A stretch of 64,000 bases of DNA, taken from the IMG/VR virus record IMGVR_UViG_3300006310_000773; one strand, given 5' to 3'. The position numbers and the translations under genes are program-made. Positions 37,531-47,766 of this stretch are shown in pieces. The first letter of the stretch is position 1, and each line of letters begins with the position of its first letter. The notes beneath the pieces are model-generated. The model was not told where the DNA came from and ran no database searches. It saw nothing but the letters and a program-made list of their open reading frames with translations. Origin of the DNA: a virus.

Positions 37531-39165
37531 TTAAATTTCGGAATTCCAATAGAGTCCTGATTTATATTCTTTCCAAACATGATAATCATCTTCAGCCACT
37601 ACCTCAGATTTGCCATCATTAAAAAAGCCCAATGGTAATGAATCTTCATCATTCATTCTTTCTTGTTGTTCTAATAATTTTTTTCTAATATCAGAATCAG
37701 TAATTTCTTTAAAATATCTTTGATTCACTAACCATCCAAATAAAACTAAAGTCATGACCAAATCATCATGATATCCTTCCTCAGCCTGAAAACTGGGTCC
37801 TTTTTCAGCAAAAGTCATCAACTCTGAAATGATATCAAAATCCTCAATTATTAAATGATCCTTCTCAATTAATTCTTTTATAGTTGTACAACCGGTTCTT
37901 TTAACATGTTTTGATGTAATTAAACCAATTCTAGAATTTTTCTTAAATCCACCACTAACTTCTTGACCACCTTTATTTGGAGAAGTGAGAATAGTGTTCT
38001 CATATTCTAAATCATAATACAATATATCTCCTACCTGCATACCATTTCCATTAGTTTCGACTAAACACCAAGACTTATTATATTGTGTAGATATTTGTTC
38101 AATTATATTTGGAAAAATAATTGGAGATATTTCATTGTTTCTATATTTTGCAACAACTTTATATGGTATTTCTGTAACATCAATTATTGTAAATGTGGAA
38201 TAATCTTGACCAACGCCTGACGCTGTGTCTACAAGAGTACAATAAGCATGACCTTTTTGTGGTTCAACATAAACATCCAATTCTTGTTGTTTTCTAATTG
38301 GTGGCTTATAAGGCATATTTCTTAATTTGGCAGGTTCAATCAAAGTATTTGTAGACCCTAAAAATTCACACTCAAATTCTTGTCTCCATTGTCTTTCACT
38401 TGTATTTCGAATAGTTTCTTGTTTCCAAGCATCATCTCTACCTGGAACATCACTCCAATTTACAGAAAATGGAACATAAGTATTTCTCCCCTCTTCTGCA
38501 TCAATCCACATTTTATAAAATTTATTCATTCCATATGGTGTTGATACAATGAAAACTTTTGTAGTATTTCCAGAAGAAATTGTAGGATAAACAGAGTTAA
38601 AAAATTCATCCGCTAAAGATGGTGGATCTACATGAGCAAACTCATCAAGGAAAATGATATTAAAAGATGAACCCCTAACCGCTGAAGAGGATGTTGCTGC
38701 AGCGAGAATTTTACTACCATTTTCTAATTCAACATTACCTTTATTCCAAACAGTAACTCCTTGTTGTAGCCATCTCGGTAAATGTTCAAAAGACATCTGC
38801 ATTCTGCTCAAAAGTTCTCTCGCAGTATTACCTTTATTAGCGAGAATAGCAACTGCAACATTCTCATTAAAAAGAATATAATGTAAAAGATAAGATACAA
38901 TTGTTGTTGATTTACCAGATTGTCTAGGTAGTTTTGAAATTACAAATCTATTATTATGAAAAATTTCGACCATCTCTTCTTGATAATCGTATAATTTAAA
39001 AGGAACTAAGCCATGATCAACATGAACAATCTGAACATAATTTTCTATGAAATGTTTTGGGTCAGTGGCACATTTAACAAGTTCCTTTACTTGATCAGGA
39101 GAAAATTCTAATTGTACGTTTGAGTTTTTTAAATTTGGGTTACCAAGATAATGCTGTGCGCCCAT
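37531..39165 (-). CDS. g17: Terminase large subunit gp17
   Basis: PRQSGKST, IFLDEFAH, HDDLVM. Confidence 0.97.
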   Translation of the reverse strand: MGAQHYLGNPNLKNSNVQLEFSPDQVKELVKCATDPKHFIENYVQIVHVDHGLVPFKLYDYQEEMVEIFHNNRFVISKLPRQSGKSTTIVSYLLHYILFNENVAVAILANKGNTARELLSRMQMSFEHLPRWLQQGVTVWNKGNVELENGSKILAAATSSSAVRGSSFNIIFLDEFAHVDPPSLADEFFNSVYPTISSGNTTKVFIVSTPYGMNKFYKMWIDAEEGRNTYVPFSVNWSDVPGRDDAWKQETIRNTSERQWRQEFECEFLGSTNTLIEPAKLRNMPYKPPIRKQQELDVYVEPQKGHAYCTLVDTASGVGQDYSTFTIIDVTEIPYKVVAKYRNNEISPIIFPNIIEQISTQYNKSWCLVETNGNGMQVGDILYYDLEYENTILTSPNKGGQEVSGGFKKNSRIGLITSKHVKRTGCTTIKELIEKDHLIIEDFDIISELMTFAEKGPSFQAEEGYHDDLVMTLVLFGWLVNQRYFKEITDSDIRKKLLEQQERMNDEDSLPLGFFNDGKSEVVAEDDYHVWKEYKSGLYWNSEI

Positions 39166-41879: not shown

Positions 41880-42428
41880 CTAAACGGCTTCAGCCCTTGT
41901 AACTTCAAGAATCCTATCAATTTGTGCCTGTAATTTACCCGTCCTATTAGGCCAATATATATACTCTTTGCTTGGGTTTTTCATAAGATTTTTCAAAAGT
42001 GGAATAATCATTTTTTCCATTTTTTCCATCCTATCTTTTAATTGTCTATCAATTTCTACTTTTCTCTCTTCTACTTCATCTATAACTGCTCGAATACTAG
42101 AACCTTGTTCCGTAACTGCAGATACTAATTCTTGTGATTGCATTGTGAGAATCTTGTCTACTTTTTCTTCAACTCGATCCCATTGATCTGAATTTAAATT
42201 CCAATCATCGCCACCACTATCTTTATCTACTAGTGATCCCAATGCATCTATTTTTTTAATAATAGATTTTACATCATCTGTTAAATCTTTACTAACCGCG
42301 GTTGCAGCCTGAGTAGAAATTTCTTTTGTTCTTTCTTCAGCGGAAGCTTGAGTTCCTTCAACCTCTTCTGCTCCACTAAAACTAAATCCAAAATCAAAAT
42401 CATCATCCCATACTTCTTCTTCTGCCAT
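41880..42428 (-). CDS. Conserved T4-like phage hypothetical protein
   Basis: DDFDFGFS N-terminus; IIPLLKNLMKNPSKEYIYWPNR C-terminus. Confidence 0.65.
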   Translation of the reverse strand: MAEEEVWDDDFDFGFSFSGAEEVEGTQASAEERTKEISTQAATAVSKDLTDDVKSIIKKIDALGSLVDKDSGGDDWNLNSDQWDRVEEKVDKILTMQSQELVSAVTEQGSSIRAVIDEVEERKVEIDRQLKDRMEKMEKMIIPLLKNLMKNPSKEYIYWPNRTGKLQAQIDRILEVTRAEAV

Positions 42429-43624
42429 TATTTGAATCCTATCGCTTTAAGTTGTTTAATTGTATTTGCTGCACTGGTATGATGTATTCCTATTCCTCCC
42501 GCTTTTCTAAATTCTGCAATATTTTGTTCATGATCATCAATCAGAATATTGGGTCTTCTATCTCTACCATCTTTAGCAAATTGTTTTTTATCACGTCTTG
42601 AAACTGCTCTCATACTATTTTTTTCAACATTAAAATGTTTTAGCATCCATTTTGTCTTATCAGCTCCCGCCCTATCAGCGATTTTTCCCCTTTTATGTGT
42701 TGGTATTGCTGTAAGCATAAAGGGATTGAGTTTACCAATAAAATTCCAAAGTCGTTTCGCATCTTTCATTGGTGGTAATTTATAGAAAAAATCGTCTGGT
42801 AATTCCTCCCAACGCTCATCTTTAAACTTTCCACCAATCATTTCCTTAACTCCCGCATCAAAATCCGCTACAACTCCATCCATATCACAATAAATTTGAG
42901 GATTATCAAATTCATCTAATTCAAAATATTCTTTAAAAGTTTGAGATTTTTTTAATTTCTTTTCCCTTTCAATCCATTTTTTAGCTTTATAATTTTCTAC
43001 AGGTTTCTGTATTATTTTTTTTAATATTTTATAAACACTTCTAAATGGATCACGTGCTTCAGTTTCAGTATTATTATCAACAATTATAAATTTATCAGCA
43101 CCAAAATATTCTTGAAATTTTCCTATATTTGACTGAACATTTTCCCAACTCTTTTTTACTATGTCATCTCTTAATTTTCTAGGTCTTCGACTATTTCTTT
43201 TTAAAGCGACATCTAATGATGTATTAACAAATATCATCATTGTATCATAACCCAACCCCCGCAATCCTTCTGATGCTGATTGAAGTCTGTCAAATTTATG
43301 GCCTGTGCCATCTACAATTAAACCTAATCTTCCGTCCATCCATTGTTTCATTCTCATTTTTGTAAGGGATTTTGCCTTATCTCTAATCACTTGAGATTTC
43401 TCGAAATCCTTTTCTGTATATTTCGTGAAGTCTGTTCCCAATCCAGAAGATGTTAATTTTAATTCATATATTTCATCTGAATTCACAATCTTCATTCCTA
43501 GTCCAGCTGTTGAATGACCGGCAACCCACGACTTTCCAGAACCAGGACCTCCTGCCATGAAAACTGCTTTAAAAATTGAAGGATCATACATTCCTTCAAT
43601 TAAGAATTCATTAAATTGCTTCAT
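42428..43624 (-). CDS. P-loop kinase (zeta/AAA_33-like) fused to a HAD 5'-nucleotidase
   Basis: GGPGSGKS, LIVDGTG; DMDGVVADF, LIDD; likely start MKQFNEFLIE at 43624. Confidence 0.8.
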   Translation of the reverse strand: MKQFNEFLIEGMYDPSIFKAVFMAGGPGSGKSWVAGHSTAGLGMKIVNSDEIYELKLTSSGLGTDFTKYTEKDFEKSQVIRDKAKSLTKMRMKQWMDGRLGLIVDGTGHKFDRLQSASEGLRGLGYDTMMIFVNTSLDVALKRNSRRPRKLRDDIVKKSWENVQSNIGKFQEYFGADKFIIVDNNTETEARDPFRSVYKILKKIIQKPVENYKAKKWIEREKKLKKSQTFKEYFELDEFDNPQIYCDMDGVVADFDAGVKEMIGGKFKDERWEELPDDFFYKLPPMKDAKRLWNFIGKLNPFMLTAIPTHKRGKIADRAGADKTKWMLKHFNVEKNSMRAVSRRDKKQFAKDGRDRRPNILIDDHEQNIAEFRKAGGIGIHHTSAANTIKQLKAIGFK

Positions 43625-44219
43625 TCGGCTTTCCTTCAAAGATTGTAAGCCATTGTTCACCATGTAATTTATTATAATACATGCTTGTTTCTAATTTTTC
43701 TTCCATAACAAAAGATTCCTCTTTCATTTTTAATAGAAACTTTTTATCTCTGTGTGAGCCTTTATGTAATTTTGAGAATAAATCTTGAAATTGGTTTCCT
43801 CTATTATCAACAGAAATACTTTTGCCCCCATGATTAAAATTTGCATGAACTTTACCATGAGAATTTCCTGGAGAAGTATTTGTTCCTAAAAGTGAAAAAT
43901 CATCTTTCTCTTTGTGGATTACTGAATGTTGATCATATTTTTTTCCTAAACCCATCATGTGTTTTCTTTCAATATTAGGAATAAGAAGAGATTTTTCTTT
44001 AACAAATCCTCCCTCTTCTTTATAACCACCTCTCATTTCAATATATCCATGTCCAAGTTTTCGAACATGATTTTTTAAATCAGAAAAGCGTTTTTCATTC
44101 TCTTCAGGTGAATGTTCCTGCCTATGTGGTGATATTAAACCAAACTTAGGAGTTTTATTCACATGATGCATAACTCTCGATAAACTAGATTCTACTAAAT
44201 GATTCTTAAATGTTTTCAT
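43611..44219 (-). CDS. Hypothetical protein with capsid-targeting-like N-terminus
   Basis: MKTFKNHLVESSLSR; GGYKE..EKS..GKKYDQHSV pattern. Confidence 0.65.
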   Translation of the reverse strand: MKTFKNHLVESSLSRVMHHVNKTPKFGLISPHRQEHSPEENEKRFSDLKNHVRKLGHGYIEMRGGYKEEGGFVKEKSLLIPNIERKHMMGLGKKYDQHSVIHKEKDDFSLLGTNTSPGNSHGKVHANFNHGGKSISVDNRGNQFQDLFSKLHKGSHRDKKFLLKMKEESFVMEEKLETSMYYNKLHGEQWLTIFEGKPNEAI

Positions 44220-44256: not shown

Positions 44257-44286
44257 ATCATACCACGAAACTAGGAAAATTGTCAA
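44257..44286 (-). promoter_or_regulatory. Sigma70-like promoter
   Basis: TTGACA-18-TATGAT. Confidence 0.55.
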
Positions 44287-44300
44287 GTTTTAAATATTTA

Positions 44301-44981
44301 TTAATTCCCACCATTCCTACATTGTATTGTTCCTTGACACGCCAAATGTTTCATTCCTTCCAACAAGAACAGCATTTCATCAATAAATGCATCAAGCCCT
44401 CTTATTAGGTACGGATAGATAAATTCTCCAACCGGCCCTCGTAATAAGAATACTAAAACTGCTCCCACCATTCCCCAAAGGAAACTCATGTATGACCACT
44501 TGAGAAATTTGTATTTACTGAGAGCAAGAACTTTTCCTTGTCCGTATATGTCTCCCGCAAGTGCATCATATACGATATCATCTGTCATCAATTTTTCTGC
44601 GTAATCTTCTTTATATTCTTCAATATCTATATGAGCAAAATGACCAAAAAATAAAGGATTAAAATGCGGAGATGATCTGTCTATATCTCCATGTCTGTCT
44701 TTTGGATAATCCGTCTTTGGTATAATAGCAAATATCGCAAACAATAATGAGAAGAAACTGCCCGTTGCAAATGTTAGTAGAGGCCATTTCATCACCTCAT
44801 TGTCCAGGTTTGCTATCGTTATAGAAAATACAATAGATGCAACAGTAATCATTATATTAGCTTTTGCATCTGCCATCAACCCCAATCTCATTTGATTACC
44901 GTGATTGAGGCGGAGAATATTATCTACTGCAGTACGATCTTCAGGTACTTTTGAAAATTGATTAATTTCTTCTTTTTCCAC
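44301..44981 (-). CDS. Pycsar transmembrane effector-like protein (PycTM/DUF5706)
   Basis: MADAKANIMIT, two TMs ending AIIP, NPLFFGHF, DIYGQGKVLALSKYKFLKWSY, third TM. Confidence 0.82.
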   Translation of the reverse strand: MEKEEINQFSKVPEDRTAVDNILRLNHGNQMRLGLMADAKANIMITVASIVFSITIANLDNEVMKWPLLTFATGSFFSLLFAIFAIIPKTDYPKDRHGDIDRSSPHFNPLFFGHFAHIDIEEYKEDYAEKLMTDDIVYDALAGDIYGQGKVLALSKYKFLKWSYMSFLWGMVGAVLVFLLRGPVGEFIYPYLIRGLDAFIDEMLFLLEGMKHLACQGTIQCRNGGN

Positions 44982-44990
44982 ATCATGCCC

Positions 44991-46106
44991 CTATTTCAAT
45001 GGTGGGGCATATAATAATCCTCCATGATTGTATAATTTATTCAGACCACGTTCTAATCCTATAGGTGTATCCGGCCCCACATTACGTTCATATATTTCTT
45101 TGTAATTTCCAATCAATTTAATAACGTTATATGACCAAGATGCCTCTAGTCCAAGTTTAGCTCCAAGATGGGGATGATCTTTTCCATTTTTTTCACCCAT
45201 AAATCTTTGAATGTTTGGGTCTATGTGATTCTTGAACAAGTCAATGTTCTTTGAATTAATGCCCATCTCTTCTGCAATAAACAAAACATATACTGTCCAT
45301 CGAACTATGTCTGTCCATTTCTGATCTCCATACTTGACAACTGGCCCCAATGGTTCCTTTGAGATAATCTCTGGAAGTATCATGTGACGGGCAGGGTCAT
45401 CAAAACTTAATCTATTCGATGCAAGACCAGACCTATCCGTACCATACATATCACAGTCACCCCTTTTGTATACGTTCTTTGTTTTTTCGTTAGGGGGTAC
45501 TGCGACAGGGATATAGTTTATTCCATGTAACTCAAAAAAGTCTGCAATGTTCTTTGCAGCTGTTCCACTACCACTAAAACATATCCTTGCACCTTCCATC
45601 TGTTTTGCAGAAGATACTCCAAGAGTTTTTCTTACAATGAATCCTTGACCATCGTAATAGGTTGTAGGTAGGAATTCTAGTTTCTTTGCAACATTCCTTG
45701 TATAAGTAAATGTGGTTGCAGCAGAAAGAATATCTATAGAACCATCTATTAAGAATTCAAATCGGGTCTTACCATTGACTATAGTAAATTCGATTGCATC
45801 TGCATCACCGAATATTGCAGCTGCAACTGCACGACATATATCAACATCAAAACCTTCCCACCTATCACCATCTTCATTATTCCATATTTCCTGAGAGAAG
45901 CCGGGAAACTCATCATTGGTTCCACAAATGACATATCCTCTTTTCTTCACTCGTTCAAATGTTGAATTATACGTTGGAACATATTCTGATTTTGGTGCAC
46001 CAACTCCAAGTTTTTCTTTCATTGGATCTTGGCCCTCAGCAGGAGACAATGCCATCATCCAAAATACCCAAATTAAAGATACAACAAGTTTACCTACCAT
46101 TATCAT
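44991..46106 (-). CDS. aapJ: General L-amino-acid ABC transporter substrate-binding protein (AapJ/BztA-like)
   Basis: Signal peptide; GFDVDICRAVAAAIFGD, YYDGQGF, PEIISKEPLGP, GNYKEIYERNVG, GGLLYAPP. Confidence 0.9.
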   Translation of the reverse strand: MIMVGKLVVSLIWVFWMMALSPAEGQDPMKEKLGVGAPKSEYVPTYNSTFERVKKRGYVICGTNDEFPGFSQEIWNNEDGDRWEGFDVDICRAVAAAIFGDADAIEFTIVNGKTRFEFLIDGSIDILSAATTFTYTRNVAKKLEFLPTTYYDGQGFIVRKTLGVSSAKQMEGARICFSGSGTAAKNIADFFELHGINYIPVAVPPNEKTKNVYKRGDCDMYGTDRSGLASNRLSFDDPARHMILPEIISKEPLGPVVKYGDQKWTDIVRWTVYVLFIAEEMGINSKNIDLFKNHIDPNIQRFMGEKNGKDHPHLGAKLGLEASWSYNVIKLIGNYKEIYERNVGPDTPIGLERGLNKLYNHGGLLYAPPLK

Positions 46107-46573
46107 TGCAATGCCCGATATACTTCTAACAATTCTTCATCTGCGATCGGGGCGGTCATAGTATAATATCTCTGGTGGCCAACCGACATGAATGCTTTAA
46201 TGTCAGAAAAACTTGGATATTTCATTAAGAGATTATGAAGAAGATAATCTGGACTCAAGTGGCACGATGCACATTGATTATCCTTTGCAAATACTCTGGT
46301 TGATTTCTTGAATCGTTCAGATTGAACTAATACAGAGTTGAGATCCTTTTCCATCCATGTAACTTTTTCTTCTATATCTGGAATAACCAAAAAGGTTAAG
46401 TATATAAGAAGTGCAATAATAACATAGATAAATGATTTACTCGCAACTATTTGGTCTTTAGCAGAAAGTTCCATTTGTTGAACTTCATCTACTTTTTTAT
46501 CTATTTCTTCAATATCATGTTGTAGTATTTTTTGATCTTTTCCATTTGCAACAATTTTTTCTTTTTCAGCCAT
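46103..46573 (-). CDS. Membrane-anchored c-type cytochrome-like protein
   Basis: One TM, then CASCH (CxxCH) and a C-terminal M..PIADEEL.EVY class-I-like helix. Confidence 0.6.
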   Translation of the reverse strand: MAEKEKIVANGKDQKILQHDIEEIDKKVDEVQQMELSAKDQIVASKSFIYVIIALLIYLTFLVIPDIEEKVTWMEKDLNSVLVQSERFKKSTRVFAKDNQCASCHLSPDYLLHNLLMKYPSFSDIKAFMSVGHQRYYTMTAPIADEELLEVYRALQ

Positions 46574-46580
46574 AATTACC

Positions 46581-46925
46581 TCACTTCTTTCCTGCTTCGT
46601 TTAACTTCTTGGTGATTTGCTGTTGAAACCATTTGAGAACAATCGGTATGCTCACATTAGATGTCAATCCAAAAAGATAACCGATGGGATAACGATAACT
46701 TTCATAGGCCGCAAGTTGTGGAACATTTGTAAATACAATAGAAATCAACAAATATCCAGTTGCTGACATTCCCATATTGATAACTAAATCAAGTAAAATC
46801 AACCATCCATGACCGTTATACTTATCCTTATTATCCTGTCTGTAATTAAACAGAAATATCCAAAATGATGAAAATAATACCAATCCAAGCATCATCATTT
46901 CAGAAGTGTTAAATAAATCAATCAT
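46581..46925 (-). CDS. Three-TM membrane protein (holin-like)
   Basis: Three hydrophobic segments and a basic C-terminal tail. Confidence 0.55.
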   Translation of the reverse strand: MIDLFNTSEMMMLGLVLFSSFWIFLFNYRQDNKDKYNGHGWLILLDLVINMGMSATGYLLISIVFTNVPQLAAYESYRYPIGYLFGLTSNVSIPIVLKWFQQQITKKLNEAGKK

Positions 46926-46937
46926 ATTATGTTACCT

Positions 46938-47108
46938 TTATTTTCCTTCAATTCTATTAAAAAATTCTATAGATTTTATAAGTTGTTCAATCTGATCTGT
47001 ATGTGACAGCGATTGATATATAAGTAATCCAAATGTGAATAGAACTATAAACCATAAACATGTGAATGATATTAACACAAGTTTAGATATTAATTCTTCT
47101 TCTTTCAT
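46938..47108 (-). CDS. Small single-TM protein (56 aa, not in the ORF track)
   Basis: MKEEELISKLVLISFTCLWFIVLFTFGLLIYQSLSHTDQIEQLIKSIEFFNRIEGK; ATG overlaps the upstream stop (ATGA). Confidence 0.6.
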   Translation of the reverse strand: MKEEELISKLVLISFTCLWFIVLFTFGLLIYQSLSHTDQIEQLIKSIEFFNRIEGK

Positions 47109-47365
47109 TTATCTTCCAATTGATAATTAAATGCTTTTGTATCCTTTGATGCTGGTTTTGCCATTGGTCTAAGCCAAACATAAATTACCATACTGCTCGT
47201 TGGTGATGGAAATTTAAAGGTTGGTTTACCCTTCCTCATACCAATATCATCAGTTGCATTAACTGGATGTCTTGCGAGTTTGCGTTTCTTGATTTCATCA
47301 CTAACATACTTGTCAAGTTTTCTGTCTAAACGCGTTTCTTTGAGATATTCTTTAAAATTTATCAT
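47105..47365 (-). CDS. Hypothetical protein with capsid-targeting-like N-terminus
   Basis: MINFKEYLKE; coupled to g16. Confidence 0.6.
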   Translation of the reverse strand: MINFKEYLKETRLDRKLDKYVSDEIKKRKLARHPVNATDDIGMRKGKPTFKFPSPTSSMVIYVWLRPMAKPASKDTKAFNYQLEDK

Positions 47366-47766
47366 TTATTCTTCTTATCCTTTATCAACTTTAATAAATC
47401 TGTAGTTGATCCAACATACAAATTATTATTAACTGATGCTGGTCCTGTTGGTGCTTTGTTTGTTAATTCTTTTTTAACTTTTTGAAGATTTACCAATTTT
47501 TCATTAGTTTCTCCAAGATTTTTAATCAGTTGTGAAGCAACTTCAAAATGTCTTGCATGCTCTGTCGATTTTGCTATTTCTAATAATTCATCTAATGCGT
47601 CATGTCCCTTTTCCATTAAATTATAATAATTTTCTCTTGAATATCTATAATCAGTTTTAAAATCCTCATCATCTGAATCTACTGTTAATCTTTTTTCTGT
47701 CTTTTCTGGAAGAGTTGTTATTGGGTCTTCAACCAAAACTTCTTGAACTAAATCTTTTATGTCCAT
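47362..47766 (-). CDS. g16: Terminase small subunit gp16
   Basis: DYRYSRENYY, HARHFEVA, NNNLYVGSTTDL. Confidence 0.92.
   Translation of the reverse strand: MDIKDLVQEVLVEDPITTLPEKTEKRLTVDSDDEDFKTDYRYSRENYYNLMEKGHDALDELLEIAKSTEHARHFEVASQLIKNLGETNEKLVNLQKVKKELTNKAPTGPASVNNNLYVGSTTDLLKLIKDKKNK

Follow-up and report, generated by a model that had tools for sequence, protein, structure and literature searches.

Among described proteins, the closest counterparts of the phage protein examined here are the transmembrane effectors of the Pycsar and Pucsar systems, represented by PycTM and EcPucTM. EcPucTM is a hexamer with a 15 Å channel lined by its second transmembrane helix (TM2), and its architecture comprises three TM helices, a cytosolic part that is helical, and a beta appendage (10.64898/2026.08.12.744502). 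The PucsarTM system has been reported to act mainly on T4-like phages, and the known phage counters to Pycsar work through degradation or sequestration of the signal. The phage protein belongs to the same Pfam family as these effectors and shares with them the three TM segments and, between TM2 and TM3, a cytosolic helical insert together with a small beta element. It differs from them, however, in that no partner cyclase adjoins its gene in the sequence searched, and in that the gene is phage-encoded and lies inside a cassette of envelope genes. No mention of DUF5706 or PF18967 was found in the literature searched, and no phage-borne PycTM homologue was described in the papers examined that mention PycTM or Pycsar effectors.

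The gene lies in a window of 64,000 nucleotides (the whole stretch of DNA that was analysed), which is part of IMG/VR record IMGVR_UViG_3300006310_000773. The record is 88,952 bp long, with a CheckV completeness of about 35%. An earlier sequence-only reading had placed the gene in a T4-like phage, and the T4-type genes found in its vicinity bear this out; these encode the neck protein gp14, the tail sheath stabiliser gp15, the small and large terminase subunits, and the sheath and tube proteins. Compared with deposited phages, the large terminase reaches an identity of about 59% at most, with the best matches in Synechococcus myoviruses. This low identity, combined with the T4-type neighbours, assigns the source phage to what its gene content indicates is an uncultured marine T4-like lineage. 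Contigs from Nitrososphaerales, Chloroflexota and Flavobacteria MAGs (L076-L079) were considered as evidence for a host and were rejected as mis-binned phage DNA. This was because L077 and L078 hold the cassette described below along with other genes of the phage lineage (including gp14-16 in L078), and because L076 and L079 are short contigs with PycTM-like copies that are 82-85% identical.

Membership in the PycTM/DUF5706 family, as proposed from the letters of the sequence, was upheld by several comparisons. The Pfam model PF18967 (PycTM, formerly DUF5706) matched residues 62-170 of the protein with 71.3 bits (E 1.1e-19), its curated cut-off being 27.2 bits, and a six-frame search of the record with the same model recovered the gene at 72.4 bits. 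The PADLOC PycTM model PDLC02364 matched almost the whole length of the protein (E 2.8e-16). In addition, an AlphaFold2 (AF2) model of the protein aligned with PF18967 clusters of the ESM Atlas, HD-fused ones included, at TM scores of 0.65-0.81. Searches of other resources were less informative: PHROGs and NCBIfam gave no match for the PycTM-like protein, nor for the CxxCH and small TM proteins encoded upstream of it, a sequence-profile search of the PDB with the PycTM-like protein returned no meaningful match, and Foldseek of the model against the PDB and BFVD returned nonspecific helical matches only (E>0.08).

The motifs that had drawn attention to the gene were also recovered, namely A37-D38-x-K40-A41, F111-F112-G-H114-F115 (within the LFFGHF string) and K156-Y157..L160..S163-Y164. 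In a 102-sequence alignment that included the window protein, these three motifs (ADxKA, FFGHF and KYxxLxxSY) formed the most conserved columns across the family, and residues D38, K40, P88, F112 and K156 were invariant. The pair of TM helices proposed earlier has to be revised to three, since the hydropathy profile displays hydrophobic segments at residues 39-57, 69-87 and 162-180. A first AF2 model, built from 14 close sequences, was poor (pLDDT 64) and was superseded by one built from the 102-sequence alignment (pLDDT 93.5, pTM 0.77). In the latter, a long helix (17-57) and a second helix (65-86) are followed by a small beta-hairpin and short helices (88-133), another long helix (134-181) and a C-terminal helix (183-217). 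A four-copy complex prediction returned a score of 0.34 (mark 0.42), which speaks neither for nor against an oligomer. The coordinates of the gene, its segments and its neighbours are listed in Table 1.

Table 1. Features of the PycTM-like locus, with positions in the window.
Feature	Position	Strand	Basis or remark
Large terminase (gp17-like)	37531..39165	-	directly 3' of the PycTM-like gene in several relatives
P-loop kinase fused to NT5C-type nucleotidase	42428..43663	-	
DUF3293/SAM-lyase-like gene	43611..44219	-	
Strong sigma-70-like promoter, TTGACA-18-TG-TATGAT, 11/12, extended -10	44257..44286	-	in the 81-nt gap directly past the PycTM-like stop
PycTM-family (PF18967/DUF5706, pJV1-SpdB3-like) 3-TM protein, 226 aa, GTG start	44301..44981	-	Pfam, PADLOC, AF2, dN/dS
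Phage-clade C-terminal tail (residues 182-226): amphipathic helix and terminal C-x5-C	44304..44438	-	sequence comparison
TM3 (residues 162-181)	44439..44498	-	model, hydropathy
Cytosolic insert (residues 88-161): beta-hairpin, FNPLFFGHF motif, start of KYxxLxxSY helix	44499..44720	-	motifs, alignment, model
TM2 (residues ~65-87), ending at invariant P88	44721..44789	-	model, hydropathy, alignment
TM1 (residues 39-57), preceded by ADxKA motif (residues 37-41)	44811..44867	-	hydropathy; model helix 17-57
Periplasmic solute-binding protein (SBP), family 3 (amino-acid type), 371 aa, N-terminal signal/anchor	44991..46106	-	Pfam SBP_bac_3, E 1.2e-11
156-aa protein: cytosolic N-terminus, one TM helix, periplasmic domain with CxxCH	46103..46573	-	CxxCH invariant in 28 orthologues
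Small membrane protein, 114 aa, first gene of the block	46581..46925	-	dN/dS 0.09; no family match
Two small ORFs (56 aa, one TM helix; 86 aa, basic) between small terminase and block	46938..47365	-	present in only part of the relatives
Small terminase subunit (gp16-like), upstream flank	47362..47766	-	PHROG 445, E 4.8e-38

A feature that sets the phage protein apart from the Pycsar TM effectors is its extra C-terminal tail. About 40 residues extend past TM3 in the phage clade, and the bacterial relatives have no such tail. It was found in 24 of the 44 distinct proteins from viral loci, every one of which carries the pair of cysteines, and 119 of the 120 metagenome clusters closest to the phage protein have it as well. 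The other 20 viral-locus proteins, or about 45% of the distinct variants, stop directly past TM3 and nevertheless keep the cassette. By analogy with EcPucTM, in which the N-terminus and the insert between TM2 and TM3 are cytosolic, the tail would be periplasmic, and its two cysteines could form a disulphide.

The absence of an adjoining cyclase or HD domain, pointed out in the sequence-only reading, was corroborated. No HD domain adjoining the gene was detected with Pfam, and class III cyclases (PF00211) were sought in all six frames of the 88,952-bp record (about 35% complete) with no match at E<=1. The latter result extends to the rest of the available genome, the place where a cognate cyclase had been suggested to be sought. 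Likewise, none was found in five related viral records carrying the same gene, which are fragments of 31-99 kb. The PF00211 search was sensitive enough to detect the divergent cyclase beside a Pycsar-type gene in bacterial genome G124 (34 bits). As the record is only ~35% complete, a distant cyclase may be encoded elsewhere in the phage genome.

The lack of a partner cyclase is a property that the phage protein shares with most family members in the bacterial genomes sampled. An exhaustive profile search retrieved 1,580 PF18967 representatives at E<=0.001, which occur as standalone proteins of ~180 aa, as proteins of ~400 aa with an N-terminal HD domain, and as EF-hand fusions. The nearest non-phage relatives of the phage protein are standalone members from Lysobacterales and other Gammaproteobacteria, Myxococcota and Cyanobacteria. 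These are 35-48% identical to it over ~170 residues and agree with it in motif set, in core length and in having no cyclase nearby. Their genes sit in ordinary, lineage-specific neighbourhoods with LysR, alpha/beta hydrolase, M1 peptidase, dihydroorotate dehydrogenase, PRAI, thioredoxin, radical SAM and SDR genes and no adjoining cyclase. They differ from the phage protein in these surroundings, in having no tail and in showing no link to an SBP or a CxxCH protein. Five genomes with such cyclase-less relatives were checked for class III cyclases. In four of them, each cyclase was on another contig or far off, and in the fifth a 685-aa cyclase was located 4 kb away in convergent orientation. 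In the cyanobacterial MAG relatives (L096, L101, L072-L075), the PF18967 gene lies in a conserved housekeeping neighbourhood and is preceded by a conserved gene of 140-147 aa with a faint TerB match.

A survey of 401 Pseudomonadota genomes yielded 25 PF18967 matches over the cut-off, in 24 genomes, and the positions of cyclases were mapped among the matches listed, with nine weak cyclase matches lying outside them. A directly adjacent cyclase, within about 400 bp, was seen for a single match (G124). Five matches, from a divergent subfamily in large genomes, had a 680-aa cyclase about 5.3 kb off. For the 19 others, which include all 11 that scored 74-98 bits, no cyclase was listed within 20 kb on the same contig. 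The divergent subfamily (L167, L168, L170, L172 and L175 in G173, G073, G370, G256 and G382) is characterized by the motifs ISDQKAAYIFTF and SLFWGAW. Its five genomes encode ~25 cyclases each, and the 680-aa protein, a class III cyclase, is always at that distance of ~5.3 kb from the PF18967 gene. This arrangement may represent an undescribed association of a cyclase with a 3TM protein, distinct from the adjacent two-gene Pycsar organization.

The two family models ranked these proteins in opposite order. The cyclase-adjacent member L169 and its close relative L171 scored 105-115 bits on PADLOC PDLC02364 and 47-49 bits on Pfam PF18967, whereas the cyclase-less bacterial members scored 47-64 bits on the former and 74-98 bits on the latter (the 11 high scorers of the survey). 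The phage protein, at 58 and 71 bits, reached about half the score of the Pycsar-type proteins on the Pycsar-specific model. The ADxKA and FFGHF motifs that it carries are absent from both L169 and L171. In a maximum-likelihood tree, which was unrooted, came from a quick search and gave long-branch warnings, the phage clade (support 99) was placed among short-branched cyclase-less standalone members and HD- and EF-hand-fused members, and the Pycsar-type members were set apart on a long branch. The HD- and EF-hand-fused proteins share the 3TM module with the phage protein (structural TM 0.65-0.68) but carry a cytosolic sensor or enzyme domain at the N-terminus, where the phage protein has only ~36 residues. 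Altogether, the score tiers and the tree placement suggested that the phage protein is a member of the superfamily and not, on present evidence, a Pycsar effector. The earlier description of the gene as a Pycsar effector homolog thus stands as far as the PycTM/DUF5706 family is concerned, but the affinity is to the cyclase-less and fused members and not to the Pycsar-type ones.

The gene had also been described as an orphan, and this did not hold. It closes a conserved cassette of four genes, located between those for the small and large terminase subunits and consisting, in order, of the genes for the 114-aa small TM protein, the 156-aa CxxCH protein, the 371-aa SBP and the PycTM-like protein. 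The hydropathy profiles revealed a signal peptide or TM segments on every partner. For the SBP, the model TIGR01096 gave an E-value of 5e-36, yet this was under the cut-off of the model, and a tblastn search of INPHARED with the SBP returned distant, unrelated matches only. The CxxCH protein is a probable membrane-anchored c-type cytochrome, as judged from the invariant motif; further, weak indications are a Pfam match to SoxA/TsdA (E 0.077), a profile search of the PDB in which SoxA was the only match (E 0.33), and a lead from a language model (0.90 for c-type cytochromes).

Among 67 IMG/VR loci recovered with the protein, about 55 contained all four genes, with order and orientation unchanged. 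A search with a family-wide pattern added 40 further loci, nearly all of which contained the cassette; the sole exception was L197, where the PycTM-like gene has different envelope proteins as partners. The cassette was also present in every gp15-anchored locus that extended far enough, even in phages with a gp15 of only ~70% identity and a PycTM-like protein of 45-51% identity. The flanks of the cassette vary, with a small terminase or kinase gene on the 5' side and the large terminase gene, the DUF3293/SAM-lyase-like gene or others on the 3' side. The per-gene identities among the cassette loci are discordant, which indicates that recombination has taken place with retention of the four-gene set. 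From the small terminase gene to the stop codon of the PycTM-like gene, the gaps are <=12 nt and several genes overlap by 4 nt. The start codon of the PycTM-like ORF is 9 nt past the stop of the SBP gene, and in some relatives these two genes overlap. The genes of the cassette are translationally coupled. All four are under purifying selection, with median dN/dS values of 0.09-0.15 at a dS of about 1.1 (0.14 for the PycTM-like gene).

These properties bear indirectly on the proposal, also made in the sequence-only reading, that the phage copy counters host defence. In such a role, it would either poison the ring formed by a host PycTM or PucTM protein or serve as a membrane-bound sink for the cyclic nucleotide. 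Several observations are consistent with this: homology to PycTM spans almost the entire phage protein, neither the record nor the five related records yielded a cyclase that could partner it, and the action of PucsarTM chiefly against T4-like phages could provide such a phage with a motive for anti-defence. Phages are also known to degrade or sequester the Pycsar signal. A search of the record for an Apyc1-like MBL nuclease gave none, so this phage would benefit from a countermeasure of a different kind. However, the protein groups with the cyclase-less members and attains only half the PycTM-model score of true Pycsar-type proteins. No cellular relative exceeds about 48% identity, which makes co-assembly with a host protein a poor prospect. 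In addition, a gene at the end of the structural-gene block that is coupled to genes for periplasmic proteins does not resemble an early anti-defence gene. A degenerate decoy is further argued against by the retention of all family-invariant residues and by the purifying selection, although a functional competitor or ligand sink is still compatible with both. Because of the branch placement, the absence of a close cellular counterpart and the coupling to periplasmic proteins and not to early genes, the decoy or sponge is disfavoured, and we regard an anti-Pycsar or anti-Pucsar function as quite unlikely.

Membership in the cassette could alternatively be taken as a sign of an auxiliary metabolic module, in which the channel, the SBP and the haem protein would take part in uptake or in redox or ion homeostasis and keep the infected cell productive. 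In one version, the amino-acid-binding protein could feed the PycTM-like protein, which would act as a conduit or regulator. The PycTM-like gene is strictly linked, and translationally coupled, to genes for an amino-acid-type SBP and a CxxCH protein, which would be in line with such a module, as would the housekeeping context of the nearest bacterial relatives. Moreover, marine T4-like phages often carry host-like envelope or nutrient genes, an example being PstS in cyanophages. On the other hand, no SBP or cytochrome gene was seen beside a PF18967 gene in the cellular genomes examined, and the family has no known transport function.

The variable neighbours of the PycTM-like gene are also relevant to this question. 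In about 30 related loci (e.g., L014, L044, L050, L006, L197 and L208), a gene for a class 3 lipase (Lipase_3) lipoprotein was found beside the PycTM-like gene, usually 3' of a downstream ORF of 90-120 aa; in L197 it overlaps the PycTM-like gene and in L208 it is upstream. Such a frequent lipase neighbour fits envelope damage better than nutrition, and an auxiliary metabolic role is considered an unlikely, minor rival. No lipase was found in the record of the source phage itself, where a cell-wall hydrolase gene is located 2.6 kb downstream of the PycTM-like gene. In L197, a gene for a DegP-like Trypsin_2-PDZ protease is nearby. The lipase and protease neighbours suggest that the terminase genes enclose a variable island coding for proteins that act on the envelope.

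The explanation that we favour, tentatively and with a little less than an even chance of being correct, is that the PycTM-like protein is a functional inner-membrane channel from the cyclase-independent branch of the family, deployed by the phage on the envelope of its host together with the three partner gene products. By analogy with EcPucTM, the protein would form an oligomeric, ring-shaped assembly in the inner membrane, its channel lined by TM2, and the conserved cytosolic insert with the ADxKA, FFGHF and KYxxLxxSY motifs would control its opening. The PycTM-like protein and the other envelope proteins would be made together, probably along with the late structural proteins; late action is probable because the cassette sits in the structural gene block. 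The outcome would be an altered permeability or energisation of the membrane of the infected cell, and possible purposes include the timing of lysis, collapse of the proton motive force (depolarisation) or exclusion. The lysis role is weakly based, since the lipase and the cell-wall hydrolase are not constant neighbours.

As a functional analogy only, a channel of this type can be compared with phage holins and with the lysis inhibition of T4 through T and RI, which likewise involve a phage-made protein in the inner membrane with the potential to permeabilise it; in the present case, it comes with periplasmic partners. The PycTM-like protein has no sequence relation to holins, though; it exceeds class I holins considerably in size and contains a conserved cytosolic domain. 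No match to Phage_holin_T, the T4-type holin family, was obtained in the record at E<=1.

Exclusion could also take the form of an abortive weapon, akin to the weapon against co-infecting phages that the sequence-only reading proposed. According to this alternative, the channel would stay closed until the level of a cyclic nucleotide rises, through the cyclases of the host or a second phage, and would then kill the cell and deny it to competitors. The known members of the family are signal-triggered membrane disruptors, and class III cyclases were found elsewhere in all five of the checked bacterial genomes with cyclase-less relatives, so a remote signal is conceivable. However, a lytic phage would gain little from aborting its own infection, and the conserved linkage to the SBP and the CxxCH protein would be left unexplained. 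We consider this second minor rival to be very unlikely.

An extension of the favoured channel reading would be that the four cassette proteins form one sensing-and-gating device. The SBP and the haem protein would report the nutrient or redox state of the periplasm, and the small TM protein and the tail with its cysteine loop would open or shut the channel, so that lysis time or membrane energisation is set by conditions outside the cell. This idea is highly speculative and we give it only a slight chance of being right; if true, a defence-effector fold would have been used to build a functional counterpart of T4 lysis inhibition.

The PycTM-like gene is abundant in marine metagenomes. A word-indexed metagenome search identified 1,628 proteins (clusters at 90% identity) at E<=0.001, and the best 120 of these 1,628 were 74-96% identical to the window protein. 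Relatives are encoded in at least 150 contig stretches of IMG/VR, and a tblastn search of the 50,697 deposited phage records in INPHARED gave no PycTM-like match. An entire lineage of uncultured marine T4-like phages, and an abundant one, has a member of a pore-forming family locked in a cassette with an SBP and a probable cytochrome. The Pfam label 'Pycsar effector' over-calls defence, as most family members in the sampled bacterial genomes are without a cyclase partner, and for this reason care is needed with annotation pipelines and defence-island counts that use the label. The phage protein, which is small and conserved and has a high-confidence model, provides a convenient entry point to the cyclase-independent branch.

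The sequence directly downstream of the cassette was also scanned for regulatory signals. The strong sigma-70-like site in the gap past the PycTM-like stop probably marks the end of the transcription unit and would serve the next gene. Its presence suggests that the SAM-lyase-like gene could be an early gene set among late genes. Apart from this site, the scans for sigma-70-like promoters and terminators performed no better than those of shuffled sequences. No T4 late promoter (TATAAATA) was found near the cassette, and across the window this core occurred 8 times, against about 14 expected by chance; the lineage may use a late-promoter consensus other than that of T4. The N-termini of the SAM-lyase-like protein (MKTFKNHLVE) and of the kinase-nucleotidase fusion encoded next to it (MKQFNEFLIE) resemble T4 capsid-targeting sequences.
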